The notes under the pieces are model-generated. The model searched no databases, was not told the DNA's origin, and was given only the letters and a program-made list of their open reading frames with translations. The translations under genes and the position numbers were made by a program. DNA of 10,087 bases from a virus (taxonomy: Duplodnaviria; Heunggongvirae; Uroviricota; Caudoviricetes), in the IMG/VR virus record IMGVR_UViG_2734482790_000005, positions 1 to 10,087 of that record. The stretch is one strand, 5' to 3'. Each line of letters opens with the position of its first letter. Positions within the stretch are counted from its first letter, which is position 1. Positions 1,997 to 10,087 of the stretch are shown in pieces.

Positions 1997-3400
1997 ATGC
2001 CGTCAATTATCCAGGACGCAATAACTTCTCTTTTGGGGGGAGATACCAGCGATGACTGGCAGGGGCAGTTACGGCCCAGCTCATTCAGAGGTGTGCCATT
2101 TGCAATTGTTGCTGAGGAAGGGAGCCACGGCCGACGCCAGGCGGTACATGAATATCCCTACCGTGATACAGCCTGGATAGAGGATATCGGGCGGGCAACA
2201 CGGCGATTTGTTATTCGCGGTTTCTTGATCCAGAACAGCCAGGTTTACGGCGGCGGCGATGCTATCACGCAGCGCCAGTCACTGATTGAAGCCTGTGAAC
2301 AAAAAGGTAGCGGTACGCTTGTCCATCCGACACTGGGCGAATTAACGGTTTCCATCCCTGAGAATGGTTTGCGTATTTCCGGTTCGATGGAGAACGGGCG
2401 AGTATTTGAATTTACCCTGATGGCAATTGAATCAGGGCTTAAAGTGTTTGCTGTCACGGGCAGTACCGTTGCAGGCGCCACGGTGAAAACCAACTATCTG
2501 AAACTGGTCAGCACTGCTGTGCTGAGCACGATTGCCAGAGTTAAGAGTGAAATCCGCGGTGTCACACAGGCTATAAACACCATCAGAGGCACGGTCACGT
2601 TCTGGACTAACATGGTTGACAGCACCATCAGTCAGGTCACGAATCTCAGCAATGTCCTGAACTCCACGTTCGGGAATACCCGGTACGGACGTTACAGTAA
2701 AGGCTCTGTGGGCGGTAGTTCCTCTGCTGTTGCTGGCAAATCGTCAGTTGCTGATGTGGATGATGAGAGAGCACTGGCTGACAAGGTAACAGCCCAGTCG
2801 GTAATGGACCGGAAAAATGTTACCGACAGGTCGAGCCAGCTTAGCAGCTCCAACACACCTGATGAGTTTGTCCAGGGCGTCGCCGACGTGGTAAACGCAA
2901 TTCTTAACAGCGCCGGCAGCGTTAATGACCGAATCACAGCGCTGGAAAAACTGGCTAATTCAATCAGCACGGAGTACCAGCAGTCCGACAGCAGCAAAGC
3001 GATTTCGGCGACCATGAACACGCTGATTGTTGTGCTATGTACTGGTGCCATGACCAGTGCCGCTGCGGACTCCAGACCAGCCAGTACAGACGAGGCAGAA
3101 GAGTTAACTCAACGAGTTTCTGTGCAACTTGATACGGCGCTGGTTCTGGCTGGAGACCGCGCAGACGATGATATGTATAACGCGCTTCTCGCCGTCAGAT
3201 CGGCATTCCTTTCTACGATGAGTGAGCGTGCTTCTGGTCTGAGCGAGCTTCTGCAGGTTACTACCGCTCAGCCGCTTCCGGCGCTGACGCTGGCAAACCG
3301 ATTATACCAGGATGCCACCCGTGCAGATGAACTGGTACAGGAAGCGCGCGTACCGCATCCGGCGTTTATGCCGACAACCATGAAGGTACTGAGGCAATGA
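1997..3400 (+). CDS. DNA circulation protein (Mu gpN / gp43-like)
   Basis: N-terminus carries the SFRGVPF ... HEYPYRD ... EDIGR pattern typical of the Mu N family; size (467 aa from ATG 1997) and position before the baseplate hub fit. GGAGG at 1988-1992 precedes ATG 1997; GTG 1994 is the alternative start given in the ORF track. Confidence 0.8.
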   Translation: MPSIIQDAITSLLGGDTSDDWQGQLRPSSFRGVPFAIVAEEGSHGRRQAVHEYPYRDTAWIEDIGRATRRFVIRGFLIQNSQVYGGGDAITQRQSLIEACEQKGSGTLVHPTLGELTVSIPENGLRISGSMENGRVFEFTLMAIESGLKVFAVTGSTVAGATVKTNYLKLVSTAVLSTIARVKSEIRGVTQAINTIRGTVTFWTNMVDSTISQVTNLSNVLNSTFGNTRYGRYSKGSVGGSSSAVAGKSSVADVDDERALADKVTAQSVMDRKNVTDRSSQLSSSNTPDEFVQGVADVVNAILNSAGSVNDRITALEKLANSISTEYQQSDSSKAISATMNTLIVVLCTGAMTSAAADSRPASTDEAEELTQRVSVQLDTALVLAGDRADDDMYNALLAVRSAFLSTMSERASGLSELLQVTTAQPLPALTLANRLYQDATRADELVQEARVPHPAFMPTTMKVLRQ

Positions 3401-4482
3401 ATGCAGACAGCGATCTGGATGTTGTTTCTTTGACGGTCGACGGCAAAATCATCGAGGGGTGGGATTCTGTCCGGGTAACGCGGGGTATTGAGCGTTTTCC
3501 CTCTGATTTCGATCTTGGGCTAATGGATTACTTCCCTGGCAACGAAGATCGTCAACTCGTTGAAGAGGGAATGTCTTGTGAAGTTCGTATCGGAGATGAT
3601 CTGACACTGACGGGATATGTTGATGACTGGGAACCCGCACTATCGCGCTCCCGCCATGAGGTCCGCGCCACGGGCAGGAGCAAATGTCAGGACCTGGTGG
3701 ATTGCTCAGCCGAGTGGCCTAACAACGTCATCAATGCCAGTAATGCGCTTGAAATTGCTTCTCGCCTGGCATCCTACTACGGCATCACCGTAACCACGGA
3801 TGTTGATGAACTTGTGAAGGTACCCCAGTTCACTCTGAACTGGGGTGAGTCTCCGCAAGAAGTCATCGATCGGGTGGCCAGATGGTCTGCTCTGCTTTAC
3901 TACGATCAGCCCGATGGAAACCTGTTACTGACCCGGGTGGGAACACGTCGTGCGGCAAGTGGGATAGCCGAAGGGGTAAATGTCGAGCAGGCATACTACC
4001 GCAAATCGATGGCTGACAGGTTTTCAGATTATGTCGGTGTATCAATGAGCGTTTCTCCAATTGCAGGGTATTCGCCTGATACGGCCTATGACGCTGTGAC
4101 TCTGGCAACGGCGAGAGATCCGGAGGCCGCCCGCATGCGGTACCGAAAACATATATCGATTGTGGAAAGTACCCTGATGGCTACTCAACAGGCACAAAGT
4201 GCGATCGACTGGGAAATGAACCGGCGGTACGGACGTTCAAAACAGCTCTCGGTAACCATCGATTCCTGGCGGGATAAAGACGGGAAACTGTGGGAACCAA
4301 ACACATTGATCCCCGTTGATCTTCCCACCTTACGGTTGCCGAAGACTGAATTGCTACTGGCAGAAGTCACCTATATGCGCGATGACTACGGCACCCATGC
4401 ACGCATGACGCTGATGCCGCCTGAAGCATTCTCCGTTCAGCCATATGCCTTCTACCAGAACCTGGCGGGATTCAATACATGA
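3397..4482 (+). CDS. Baseplate hub protein (Mu gp44 / P2 gpD-like)
   Basis: 361 aa, start overlaps the upstream stop in an ATGA motif (3397-3400); position in the conserved Mu-type order N-hub-spike-wedge-J-gpI. Confidence 0.75.
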   Translation: MNADSDLDVVSLTVDGKIIEGWDSVRVTRGIERFPSDFDLGLMDYFPGNEDRQLVEEGMSCEVRIGDDLTLTGYVDDWEPALSRSRHEVRATGRSKCQDLVDCSAEWPNNVINASNALEIASRLASYYGITVTTDVDELVKVPQFTLNWGESPQEVIDRVARWSALLYYDQPDGNLLLTRVGTRRAASGIAEGVNVEQAYYRKSMADRFSDYVGVSMSVSPIAGYSPDTAYDAVTLATARDPEAARMRYRKHISIVESTLMATQQAQSAIDWEMNRRYGRSKQLSVTIDSWRDKDGKLWEPNTLIPVDLPTLRLPKTELLLAEVTYMRDDYGTHARMTLMPPEAFSVQPYAFYQNLAGFNT

Positions 4483-7282: not shown

Positions 7283-7918
7283 ATGCTCCGAATCGGGCAA
7301 GTCGAAGCCACTGCAACGCAGGATGGCAAATATACTGATGGAAGTGTTGCTGGTGGTATTGCCGCAACGAGGCTGCGGGCAGCAGCGTTTAATGCCATGC
7401 AGGAAGAGTTAGCGCATATCGTAGAGTCAGCAGGATTGGCGCTCGACATTAACGATATGACTCAGGTTTTAAAAGCCATTCAAAAACTCACACTGAGCCG
7501 TGCAAACCCATTTGCCGATATCAAATCAGATGGTGCAGCGGCGATTTCTACGGCTCTCACAAACCTTGGTTTGGGAGAAGCGGCTAAAAGAAATGTAGGG
7601 ACAGGGGCGAATCAGATACCTGATATGGGTAGTTTTATGCTTTCTGCTTCAGTTCCTGGATATCAAAAATTGCCATCCGGTTTAATTATTCAATGGGGGC
7701 CAATTGATGTTCCGCTGACGCCTCAGGACACAGTAACCTATTTTCCGATTGCATTTCCGAATAGATGTCTGCGGGTATTTGCGACTCAGGATTACACTCC
7801 CGGCAGTGCAAATGTTGGCTATATAGCTTGTGCCGGTTATAACCAGGACCCGGTGAAATTTATTTCCAGAGCAGGCGTACCCGGTATCGGTGCTTCATTT
7901 TTCGCATTAGGGTGTTAA
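7283..7918 (+). CDS. Tail fibre protein, currently expressed form (constant N-part 7283-7567 fused to variable C-part 7568-7918)
   Basis: GAGGA at 7270-7274, 8 nt before ATG 7283. The 26-bp invertase crossover site lies inside the gene at 7554-7579, so the first ~95 codons are constant and the rest is inside the invertible segment. Followed by a tail-fibre assembly gene. Confidence 0.8.
7554..7579 (+). other. Left crossover site for the serine invertase (gix/hix/pix-like)
   Basis: CTCTCACAAACC TT GGTTTGGGAGAA: two 12-bp half-sites around a 2-bp core (7566-7567). Half-sites resemble the Hin/Gin half-site consensus TTATCAAAAACC (9/12 each, from my recollection of that consensus). Its inner half is the exact reverse complement of the inner half of the right site. 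Confidence 0.8.
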
Positions 7919-7944
7919 TTTCTTTTAACTTTATGGAGTGAAAA

Positions 7945-8385
7945 ATGAATTACATATATTCCGCGACTACAAACTCTTTCTATCCCTTGGAGATGAAAGA
8001 GGATTACACGCAAGCTGACTCATGGCCAGATGATGCTGTTGAAGTTGATGAGCAAGTGTATATTGAGTTTTCCGGATTACCGCCGAAAGGAAAAATCCGT
8101 ATCGCTGGAGAAAATGGTTTTCCTGCATGGTCTGAAATTCCACCACCAACACATGAGGAACAGATTGCTGCAGCCGAACTGAAAAAGCAGCAATTGATTA
8201 ATCAGGCCAACGATTATATGAACAGTAAACAATGGGCTGGTAAAGCGGCTATTGGTCGTCTGAAAGGTGAGGAACTGGCGCAATATAATTTGTGGCTGGA
8301 TTATCTGGACGCACTGGAGCTGGTCGATACTTCCAGTGCGCCAGATATTGAATGGCCTACTCCTCCGGCAGTTCAGGCCAGATGA
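7945..8385 (+). CDS. Tail fibre assembly protein (Mu U / Tfa-like), partner of the currently expressed fibre
   Basis: 146 aa; N-terminus MNYIYSATTNSFYPLE and C-terminal LDYLDALELVDTSSAPDIEWP motif are typical of Tfa chaperones; GGAG at 7935-7938 precedes ATG 7945. Confidence 0.85.
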   Translation: MNYIYSATTNSFYPLEMKEDYTQADSWPDDAVEVDEQVYIEFSGLPPKGKIRIAGENGFPAWSEIPPPTHEEQIAAAELKKQQLINQANDYMNSKQWAGKAAIGRLKGEELAQYNLWLDYLDALELVDTSSAPDIEWPTPPAVQAR

Positions 8386-8959
8386 CATCCGGCGCGGTGC
8401 TGGTATCTGTTGCCGTCACCGCGTCAATGTAATCCAGCACAGTGTTAAGTCGGGAGGTCTCTGCCTGCATCAGCTCCCGCCCAGCCCGTAATTTCAGTTG
8501 AATCAGACTAATGGAAGCCATTGCAGTATCAATCAGTGACTGACGCTGTGCTTCTGCCGCGTCTACTGCGGCGTGATGCTGTGCCTCAGTATCGGTCACC
8601 CATTTCTCACCATCCCATTTATCGTATGGCGTTAATGGGGCGATAGTGGTTGTATTTTCGGGGTAATCACCCGGAGTTGTGATTTCTTTGGCGTCTCCCG
8701 TTTCGGTGTTATAGACGATTTCTCCGCGATGGTCTGGCACATATTCCCATGAGTTTAAATCCGCAGAGCGGCAGATGGCATAACCAGCTTTATATGTTCC
8801 TGGTGCATCTAAACAGGAACATGCCGGAATACCGACACCAACAGCAAGATATTCAGTTGATGTGGAAATATATTCTCGTGTTTCACCATTATAATTATAG
8901 ACAGTAATATCCCCCGCCTTCGTGGCAATAAACTCGCTATTTAATACGGCATTATCCAT
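8357..8959 (-). CDS. Tail fibre assembly protein, alternative (Mu U' / TfaE-like)
   Basis: 200 aa; N-terminus MDNAVLNSEFIATKAGDITVYNYNGETREYISTSTEYLAVGVGIPACSCLDAPG and C-terminal LDYIDAVTATDTSTAPDVIWPELPEE are typical of Tfa proteins; start overlaps the upstream stop in TAATG. Confidence 0.85.
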   Translation of the reverse strand: MDNAVLNSEFIATKAGDITVYNYNGETREYISTSTEYLAVGVGIPACSCLDAPGTYKAGYAICRSADLNSWEYVPDHRGEIVYNTETGDAKEITTPGDYPENTTTIAPLTPYDKWDGEKWVTDTEAQHHAAVDAAEAQRQSLIDTAMASISLIQLKLRAGRELMQAETSRLNTVLDYIDAVTATDTSTAPDVIWPELPEE

Positions 8960-9486
8960 TATGCAGCCCTCACGATGTAATTAAATGAAAGGTTACGAGG
9001 GCGCATTGATATCCATGCCCCGGTAAAATTATCCTCCGCTGTCCTTTGAGTACCCGTTATGGAGTTATCTGCTGATGCAGGAACATAATCGCTATTATTT
9101 CCTGCTTTAGGATTAGCTGGGTTTCCAACAGTTATAACAGAATCAGCAGTAGCAAAAGCGATACCTACTTTGACATTAGTATTCAGATCGTAACCGTAAT
9201 AATCCTGCAAAGCTGTACGAATAAATGTTGCAGCCTGACCACTTAGCAATGAACGCCCCGTATCAATCCCTCTAGAATCATCCCAGCCACGAATAAACTC
9301 ACCACGTAAATCAGGCAATTTATTTGTCGGGTAAGCCTTTGCCAGTACCGGGTATTCTTCAGCAGAAAAAGCTGCTCCGTTGCATTTCAGCCAGCCTGTT
9401 GGCGGAGTGGCGGAAGGCCACGGAACAGGCACACCAACGGGTAATGCCGAACCTTCTCCCAAACCAACCTTTTTTATAACCATCAA
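8959..9486 (-). CDS. Alternative tail-fibre C-terminal segment (S'v-like), silent in this orientation
   Basis: Contains tail-collar-like motif PVGVPVPWPSATPPTGWLKCNGAAFSAEEYPVLAKAYP. Its first codons (9468-9486) lie in fixed DNA outside the segment and have no SD, so it is not an independent gene; after inversion codons from 9465 downward would fuse in frame to the constant part 7283-7567. Confidence 0.75.
   Translation of the reverse strand: MMVIKKVGLGEGSALPVGVPVPWPSATPPTGWLKCNGAAFSAEEYPVLAKAYPTNKLPDLRGEFIRGWDDSRGIDTGRSLLSGQAATFIRTALQDYYGYDLNTNVKVGIAFATADSVITVGNPANPKAGNNSDYVPASADNSITGTQRTAEDNFTGAWISMRPRNLSFNYIVRAA
9454..9479 (+). other. Right crossover site for the serine invertase
   Basis: TTCTCCCAAACC AA CCTTTTTTATAA; core AA at 9466-9467 equals the left core TT when inverted; reverse complement TTATAAAAAAGG TT GGTTTGGGAGAA shares one identical half-site with the left site, the same arrangement as hixL/hixR. 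Confidence 0.8.
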
Positions 9487-9507
9487 AAATCTGGTGATGC
9501 TTCGCCG

Positions 9508-9534
9508 TTTCTCCTGTTTTCATAACAGGAGAAA
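9508..9534 (+). promoter_or_regulatory. Perfect 11-bp-arm palindrome covering the invertase ribosome-binding site
   Basis: TTTCTCCTGTT (9508-9518), spacer TTCAT, AACAGGAGAAA (9524-9534). The right arm contains AGGAG (9527-9531), 7 nt before the invertase ATG at 9539. No T-tract on either side, so not a terminator. Confidence 0.6.
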
Positions 9535-9538
9535 TCCC

Positions 9539-10087
9539 ATGATTTACGGTTATGCCCGAGTATCAACAAACCACCAGGACACTGAATTGCAACTAACGGC
9601 GCTCAAGTCAGCGGGTTGTGAGAAAATTTTTGAAGAGCATGCCAGCGGGAGGAAATCGAATCGGCCGGTTCTAAAACGGCTCATCGCCACTATGCAGCCG
9701 GGGGATGAACTGGTGGTCTGGAAGCTGGACAGGATAGGCCGCAACGTTCTGCATGCGCTGTTGATGTTCCAGCAGTTACAGGAAAAGGGTATCAACTTCC
9801 GCAGTATTACCGATGGCGTGGATCTCAAAACAGCCAGCGGCCGCTATAACTTTCGTAACATCCTTTCCGCAGCACAATATGAATCTGATCTTAATAGCGA
9901 ACGTACCTTAGCAGGGCTGGCCGTAGCCAGGGCAAAAGGGCGAGTTGGTGGTCGCAGGCCTAAGTTCACGGATGAGCAATGGCGGGAAATGGGGGAGCGG
10001 ATGGCAACCGGTGAATCACGACAAAGCGTATCAAAAACGTATGGAGTAGGGCTCTCAACTCTGTATAAAAAGTTTCCAGCTAGCTGA
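9539..10087 (+). CDS. Serine DNA invertase (Gin/Hin/Cin/Pin family)
   Basis: 182 aa; N-terminal GYARVST with the catalytic serine at residue 10, VVWKLDRIGR resolvase-family motif, GRVGGRRPK hinge and C-terminal helix-turn-helix (SVSKTYGVGLSTLYKK). Start 9539 preferred over 9380 in the track because of the SD and family length. Stop TGA at 10085-10087. Confidence 0.9.
   Translation: MIYGYARVSTNHQDTELQLTALKSAGCEKIFEEHASGRKSNRPVLKRLIATMQPGDELVVWKLDRIGRNVLHALLMFQQLQEKGINFRSITDGVDLKTASGRYNFRNILSAAQYESDLNSERTLAGLAVARAKGRVGGRRPKFTDEQWREMGERMATGESRQSVSKTYGVGLSTLYKKFPAS

Follow-up and report, generated by a model that had tools for sequence, protein, structure and literature searches.

A conserved palindrome over the ribosome-binding site of a phage DNA invertase gene as a candidate brake on invertase translation

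The stretch of DNA analysed here (10,087 nt; hereafter the window) comprises the last part of a Mu-like module of tail and baseplate genes. Its products include a DNA-circularisation protein N domain, a gp44/GpP-like hub, baseplate J and Mu gp48; after these come a tail-fibre gene whose C-terminus is gp53-like, two opposed tail-fibre chaperones and, likewise opposed, a fibre tip with a Collar domain. Similar modules are found in E. coli chromosomes, where the adjoining genes are annotated as YmfQ, tfaE and 'recombinase family protein'. An invertible segment of about 1.9 kb is delimited by two 26-bp crossover sites in inverted orientation: the left site (7554-7579; CTCTCACAAACC TT GGTTTGGGAGAA) lies within the tail-fibre gene at 7283-7918, and its inverted partner, the right site (9454-9479), is composed of an inner half-site TTCTCCCAAACC, the core AA at 9466-9467 and an outer half-site CCTTTTTTATAA. 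Tail-fibre tip and chaperone genes stand between the two sites in two opposed sets, which is the setting of a Din-family invertase. The invertase itself is encoded on the plus strand at 9539-10,087, a serine DNA invertase of Pin/Gin type with 182 aa and with Pfam matches to Resolvase and HTH_7 (E = 3.6e-39 and 1.5e-9, respectively). Because the Resolvase match begins at residue 2, the ATG at 9539 is the true start of the gene. The protein is identical (100%) to the invertase of mEp237 and 99.5% identical to PinL of phi80, but shares only about 52% identity with Cin and Gin, and therefore represents a separate branch of the invertase family. A Fis-dependent recombinational enhancer, which Din-family invertases have in the 5' part of the gene, is annotated in P7 cin.

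The DNA that separates the right crossover site from the start of the invertase gene contains an inverted repeat (9508-9534) of 11 bp without mismatch, its arms 5 nt apart, as a first-pass annotation of this DNA had stated; a repeat search found the arms to be 100% complementary. The left arm (TTTCTCCTGTT, 9508-9518, plus strand) forms the anti-Shine-Dalgarno (anti-SD) strand and has no coding or SD role of its own. It is followed by the loop TTCAT (9519-9523), which reads TTCAC, TTTAC or TTTAT among relatives, and by the right arm (AACAGGAGAAA, 9524-9534, plus strand). The AGGAG of the invertase was said to be part of the right arm, and it is indeed read there, at 9527-9531, 7 nt ahead of the ATG (9539-9541). 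In RNA, the left-arm strand UUUCUCCUGUU pairs with the right arm and a closing pair G9507·U9535 extends the eleven perfect pairs, so that the leader stem-loop on the plus strand (9507-9535) has a stem of 12 bp. Of 400 shuffles of the 10-kb window, only 1% contained, at any position, a perfect inverted repeat this long (11 bp or more) with a loop of 3-10 nt. One other perfect 11-bp inverted repeat is present in the window, at 3822-3846 (ACCCCAGTTCA ctc TGAACTGGGGT, 3-nt loop), inside the baseplate-hub gene (3397-4482). Isolated copies of the arm motif TTCTCCTGTT with one mismatch are found within coding regions at 353-362, 1235-1244 and 8873-8882, none of them palindromic; the motif has five matches in total in the window, with 0.5 expected.

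The stem-loop is predicted to be very stable. The hairpin alone folds at -15.4 kcal/mol in the window type and at -14.9 kcal/mol in the variant of phi80. Folding of the region 9480-9560, in line with the hairpin postulated earlier, gave -25.5 kcal/mol (z = -4.2), and none of 200 shuffled sequences folded as well; the main stem is still present in a fold of 321 nt. At temperatures from 25 to 45 °C, the computed probability of an unpaired SD is about 1e-5 to 8e-4. Forcing the region from -15 to +13 open costs 21.2 kcal/mol at the invertase, compared to 6.3-16.4 kcal/mol at eight other gene starts of the window, and this computed cost falls to 9.6 kcal/mol in a mutant with a scrambled left arm. 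We thus find an SD inside a stable local stem of the sense strand, at functional spacing from a true start, which is the arrangement of an SD-sequestering hairpin. An RNA thermometer would melt within 30-42 °C, usually by way of mismatches or non-canonical pairs. The stem is not a thermometer, because the SD is predicted to stay paired from 25 to 45 °C: it is perfect, and the probability of an unpaired SD is still below 1e-3 at 45 °C.

Several other identities of the palindrome were considered and rejected. An intrinsic terminator would require a U-tract, which is absent on either strand; the main stem has 4 G-C among its 11 pairs and is followed by AUCCCAUG. A LexA box (CTGT-N8-ACAG) has a spacer of eight nucleotides, whereas CTGT (9514-9517) and ACAG (9525-9528) are separated by seven. 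Crossover sites of the Din family have 26 bp, as two inverted 12-bp half-sites with AAACC beside a 2-bp core, whereas the palindrome spans 25 bp from one distal end to the other, is centred on a single bp and lacks AAACC. No Rfam family scored above threshold; the best match, SAM-SAH with 18 bits against a threshold of 40, lies on the other strand at 9373-9408 and is a chance match. A leader peptide or translational coupling is excluded by the lack of ATG, GTG or TTG in the frame that ends with TAA at 9523-9525. A minus-strand ORF starting from the loop CAT (9523) is not conserved, because the loop varies. A further ATG at 9497-9499 stands in frame 14 codons upstream of the invertase start, in a frame that stays open as far upstream as 9380. 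Leaders of phi80 type and GGCGA type either lack this ATG or have it out of frame, and it is probably meaningless.

The palindrome belongs to a mobile cassette. Homology to the invertase cassette of HK225 and phi80 begins at the right crossover site (9454-9479); past the crossover point, the DNA shares 99.7% identity with phage HK225, 96% with mEp237 and 93% with phi80 pinL. Citrobacter phage Omnitron and SKA5, a P2-like phage, carry the cassette as well. The outer half-site, the leader and the invertase travel as one unit between Mu-like, P2-like and lambdoid phages, so that an RNA element acting in cis would need no partner. The element and its invertase were found in Escherichia, Citrobacter, Serratia, Morganella, Yokenella, Salmonella and Kluyvera, and a scan of 5,426 complete E. 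coli genomes found the leader in 72. The GenBank record of phi80 (JX871397) labels two arms upstream of pinL, CTTCTCCTGTT and AACAGGAGAAG, as repeat_region 'IR3'; they stand 5 nt apart, the second ends 5 nt before pinL, and the record gives the label only. Judged by sequence and position, phi80 IR3 and the palindrome of the window are one and the same element, so that the repeat was already annotated, with no function given there. In phi80 and HK225 the cassette lies beside attP and int, with remnants of tail-fibre genes and an invertible segment that is not intact, although leader and invertase gene are; the invertase of these two phages is an orphan, since no intact invertible segment accompanies it.

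Among 80 viral loci with invertases of 79-100% identity, the palindrome is present in all except one chimeric group. In this mEpX1-type group (six loci), the first approximately 60 residues of the invertase and the leader are Gin/Pin-like, while the rest is identical to the protein of the window, which implies recombination within the invertase gene. A genome scan of the nearest relatives outside the clade (71-74% identity) found other leaders in place of the palindrome. A pattern scan on ATGATC-type starts recovered only two clade members, among unrelated recombinases.

The conservation of the arms is striking when compared to their surroundings. Among 38 haplotypes, 3 of the 22 arm columns vary (mean minor-allele fraction 0.008), in contrast to 134 of 200 columns at codon positions 1 and 2 of the invertase (0.063) and 96 of 100 at position 3 (0.26). 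The loop varies in two of its five columns, and the spacer just 5' of the palindrome in all 13. By this comparison, both arms are under strong purifying selection and far more conserved than codon positions 1 and 2 of the invertase itself. Variation in the left arm is about 30-fold lower than at third codon positions; with neither a coding nor an SD function of its own, this arm must owe its conservation to its partner or to something that recognises it. A scan with a pattern placed outside the palindrome recovered 118 copies, all with the stem, and differences among them are limited to the loop, the spacer between SD and ATG, the outermost pair and one variant with a C·A mismatch. The outermost pair of the window type is T-A, as in the commonest variant (56 copies), and the phi80 type has C-G there (46 copies). 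Leaders from Serratia, Morganella, Yokenella, Salmonella houtenae, Citrobacter and Kluyvera have the identical stem, and Yokenella keeps it though the sequence just upstream is replaced.

Covariation, on the other hand, is thin. Nine of the 12 pairs of the main stem are invariant, and the changes amount to one compensatory substitution (T-A to C-G) and one from G·U to G-C; the closing G·U is kept in 18 of 19 sequences, and the G-C occurs in one further variant (loci L578 and L579). Pair counting over the main helix and a small upstream helix found 98.5% of cells paired. Seven of the 11 perfect pairs are U-A and could drift via U·G to C-G, but only the terminal pair did so. This conservation beyond the needs of pairing suggests either sequence-specific recognition or a very finely tuned stability. 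The claim of the first-pass annotation that the hairpin occludes the SD and keeps invertase translation low agrees with the computed stability, the high opening cost and the conservation of the arms, although covariation is thin and the low translation itself would be a predicted consequence of the structure.

The small upstream hairpin (GGTGA-TGCT-TCGCC, 9493-9506, plus strand; -5.2 kcal/mol) overlaps the best -10 candidate as well as a CGCCG stretch that is conserved ahead of the main hairpin, and is absent in Yokenella. Its third pair is C-G in 13 sequences and U·G in six, and one change from G-C to G·U is seen at the first pair; these changes are compatible with a plus-strand RNA and incompatible with a minus-strand RNA. 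Together with the T-rich left arm, it was flagged as a weak terminator.

A consensus scan of 9300-9700 found no promoter on the plus strand. The best plus-strand sigma-70 candidate of a weight matrix (9473-9501) combines TTTATA (9473-9478) and GATGCT (9496-9501) at a distance of 17 nt; it reaches 4.5 bits, which is under the median best score of random tiles (4.9), and occurs at the same position in four of five variant leaders. A transcript from it would start at about 9507-9509, the foot of the hairpin. The -10 hexamer TATAAC that had been suggested previously is present at 9475-9480, but as a promoter it scores 1.2 bits compared to the 4.5 bits of this candidate, and the consensus scan of the plus strand gives it no backing. 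The late operon of the tail fibre (7283-8385, plus strand) runs into the leader without a strong terminator; a weak terminator-like hairpin was flagged at 9492-9507. The left arm would therefore be part of the RNA either way, through its own candidate promoter or through read-through from the tail-fibre operon.

A comparison with other invertase leaders, to which the first-pass annotation had pointed, gave a divided answer. In several of them the SD can pair with an upstream pyrimidine tract. The mEpX1 group, with its Gin-like N-terminus and different leader, pairs UUCACC with the SD GGGUGAA, and pro483/P2-type leaders pair (AUC)AUCUCC with GGGGGAU(GAU); in a Kluyvera relative GGGAG is buried in another stem (all in MFE folds), and in the SfMu leader AUUUCC can be matched by inspection with GGGGAAU. 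However, pairing of the SD in the canonical Gin/Pin/P2 leaders does not significantly exceed that of shuffles matched in composition (4 of 29 at <=0.05), and a consensus fold of these 29 leaders contains no shared SD helix, only a GCAU:AUGC clamp. Pairing of the SD as a theme across unrelated invertase leaders is suggestive only. Canonical Gin/Pin/P2-type leaders (including SfMu and Fels-2) carry, about 30 nt upstream of the start, an invariant TGGCAT(C/G)AT, whose GCAU is able to pair with AUGC or GUGC of the start region and which also resembles an extended -10.

We regard it as somewhat better than an even chance (a probability of roughly 0.55) that the palindrome acts as a hairpin of the leader mRNA that works in cis, hides the SD and holds translation of the invertase very low in any transcript that carries it. 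The structure of the palindrome, its stability, its position over the SD and the purifying selection on both arms are observed; from these we infer that the left arm is transcribed, that translation is cut by orders of magnitude and that the hairpin sets the frequency of inversion. In such a mechanism the left arm would pair with the right arm into the 12-bp stem-loop and bury the SD, and initiation by the 30S subunit would be restricted to the rare moments in which the stem is open. The output of invertase would then be very low and roughly constant, regardless of whether the transcript comes from the weak promoter of the gene or from read-through of the tail-fibre late operon, and the little enzyme present would lead to infrequent inversion of the tail-fibre segment. 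A counterpoint to this model is that a stem of -15 kcal/mol would seem too stable for enough invertase to be made, and that it has no evident opening mechanism, be it coupling, an sRNA or a protein.

The excess conservation of both arms would also be expected of a DNA operator, an alternative already raised in the first-pass annotation. Here a dimer, most plausibly of the invertase, which is the only protein that the cassette encodes, would bind the palindrome as a pseudo-crossover site and repress its own gene, possibly together with the RNA hairpin. The palindrome has TTCTCC…GGAGAA (9509-9514 and 9528-9533) as distal hexamers, which are identical to those of the inner half-sites (9454-9459 and 7574-7579) and stand 13 bp apart, compared to 14 bp in real 26-bp sites; pro483-type leaders have the same geometry (ATCTCC-N13-GGGGAT), and the symmetric change at the outermost position is just as compatible with an operator. 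Should the weak TTTATA-17-GATGCT promoter be real, the palindrome would span about +1 to +27 and could block transcription. Nevertheless, the core-proximal AAACC that three of the four half-sites of the window possess (AAAGG in the fourth) is absent from the palindrome, in addition to the spacing that is off by 1 bp. Four of the six shared hexamer bases follow from the SD itself, and any pair of anti-SD and SD is bound to resemble TTCTCC/GGAGAA, whereas the outer half-sites, which the enzyme must also bind, have quite different distal hexamers (TTATAA and ATATTT). The arms of Type A (TTCCTG-N7-CAGGGA) and Mu-type leaders are too close for a dimer, the arm motif recurs elsewhere in the window as isolated one-mismatch matches inside genes, and the conserved closing G·U, with G-C in one variant, is meaningful only in RNA. 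The conservation and the shared arm ends lend the operator some weight, but the missing AAACC and the spacing leave it unlikely in our view. We consider it less likely again that the palindrome plays a dual part, as a 25-bp relic of a crossover site whose GGAGAA arm was taken as a ribosome-binding site. Recognition by the enzyme, rather than mere pairing, would then explain why the arms are more conserved than the codons of the invertase: the DNA would bind an invertase dimer non-productively, like an accessory site of res, and cause autorepression, and the RNA would silence transcripts of the late operon.

Read-through from that operon is the starting point for another explanation, in which the hairpin is selective as in IS10: the invertase's own mRNA would start inside or after the left arm and be translated, and read-through transcripts alone would be silenced. 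Protection from outside transcription would be useful to a cassette that occurs in many genomic contexts and is entered by a late operon without strong terminator, and the extended -10-like TGGCAT(C/G)AT of canonical leaders would, if functional, start an RNA within or just after the left arm. This explanation seems distinctly doubtful for the window, in which the best promoter candidate starts at about 9507-9509 and includes the whole left arm, and in which no -10-like hexamer is placed to start an RNA at 9519-9526 while keeping the SD; the change of the closing G·U to G-C (L578 and L579) likewise suggests that the foot of the helix is present in RNA. Control by an antisense RNA, in which the palindrome would give sense and antisense hairpins with complementary loops able to kiss, as in RNA-IN and RNA-OUT of IS10, appears very improbable, even though the sole match of the promoter scan in 9300-9700 lies on the minus strand in the first codons of the invertase (TTGATA at 9566-9561, 16 nt, AATCAT at 9544-9539). 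This site has 9 of 12 matches with 0.2 expected, scores 8.5 bits, above the 90th percentile of random tiles, and 8.5-9.4 at the same position in many relatives, and its RNA would start near 9532 and cover the leader. Both hexamers, however, are reverse complements of conserved invertase codons (ATG-ATT, and GTA-TCA-A of the catalytic RVST motif), and their conservation is therefore explained by coding. Moreover, one locus with an intact palindrome (L066) scores 4.5, genes with a GTG start score 3.5-4.1, and a conserved minus-strand terminator is absent.

There is equally little to recommend a terminator or insulator, a mere stabiliser of the mRNA 5' end or a functionless hitch-hiker with the SD. 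Stems at the 5' terminus protect mRNAs, and a start at G9507 would put the stem at the very 5' end, but a pure stabiliser need not contain the SD. The small upstream hairpin and the T-rich left arm were flagged as terminator-like, yet the main stem is followed by no U-tract on either strand. Hitch-hiking fails to explain a left arm about 30-fold less variable than third codon positions next to a spacer that varies freely.

The SD-hiding hairpin, which we prefer, would be a mechanism of a familiar kind: sequestration of the SD is already known and would not surprise a specialist. Its interest lies in what it would control. The flip rate of the tail fibre sets how phage and prophage hedge between hosts, and this rate depends on the amount of invertase; a portable module of 29 nt, found in at least seven genera, appears to set the supply of the enzyme at the level of translation. 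If this is confirmed, mutations in the arms would offer a simple handle on inversion frequency, and the module might serve as a low-leak translational clamp for genetic switches based on recombinases. Studies of Gin, Hin, Cin and Pin have dealt mainly with the chemistry of recombination and the Fis enhancer. The control of invertase supply is much less described: a literature search found no paper on it and no description of this hairpin, the phi80 genome paper being outside the scope of that search.

Among known systems, the leaders of the canonical Din invertases (Gin of Mu and SfMu, P2/pro483-type and Fels-2-type) are alike in place: they too lie between the outer half-site and the start codon, and their purine tract with the SD is able to pair with a pyrimidine tract across a U-rich loop. 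They differ from the palindrome in their unrelated sequence, in stems of 6-9 bp that are imperfect and variable, and in the invariant TGGCAT, which is absent in the window. The likeness to Tn3/gamma-delta res, where bound resolvase represses tnpR through accessory binding sites, consists of sites of dimer type with non-catalytic spacing upstream of a serine recombinase gene, the palindrome having 25 bp between its distal ends and the crossover sites 26 bp. The palindrome, however, lacks the core-proximal bases of a half-site, and binding to it would be hypothetical. Din invertases are not known to use accessory sites. RNA thermometers such as ROSE and FourU also hold the SD in a hairpin, whereas the stem of the palindrome is perfect and predicted to be closed at 45 °C.

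The two remaining systems resemble the palindrome in mechanism. De Smit and van Duin reportedly set out the model of translational control with mutants of the coat-gene stem of phage MS2. As in that type of stem, a local structure holds the SD in the palindrome and would act in cis and need no partner, and expression would be expected to drop steeply with stability; at -15 kcal/mol, the palindrome is far beyond the range that still gives measurable translation there. Davis, Simons and Kleckner are said to have described in 1985 a fold-back inhibition of transposase translation in IS10 and IS50. The likeness extends to an enzyme that rearranges DNA at the edge of a mobile cassette, to a ribosome-binding site in the 3' arm of an inverted repeat and to a possible protection from outside transcription. 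An equivalent of the IS10 RNA-OUT would be hypothetical for the element of the window. The defining feature of IS10, furthermore, is a start inside the repeat: the 5' arm lies upstream of the start of the transposase promoter, so that its own mRNA escapes, whereas the best candidate start of the invertase mRNA would include the 5' arm.
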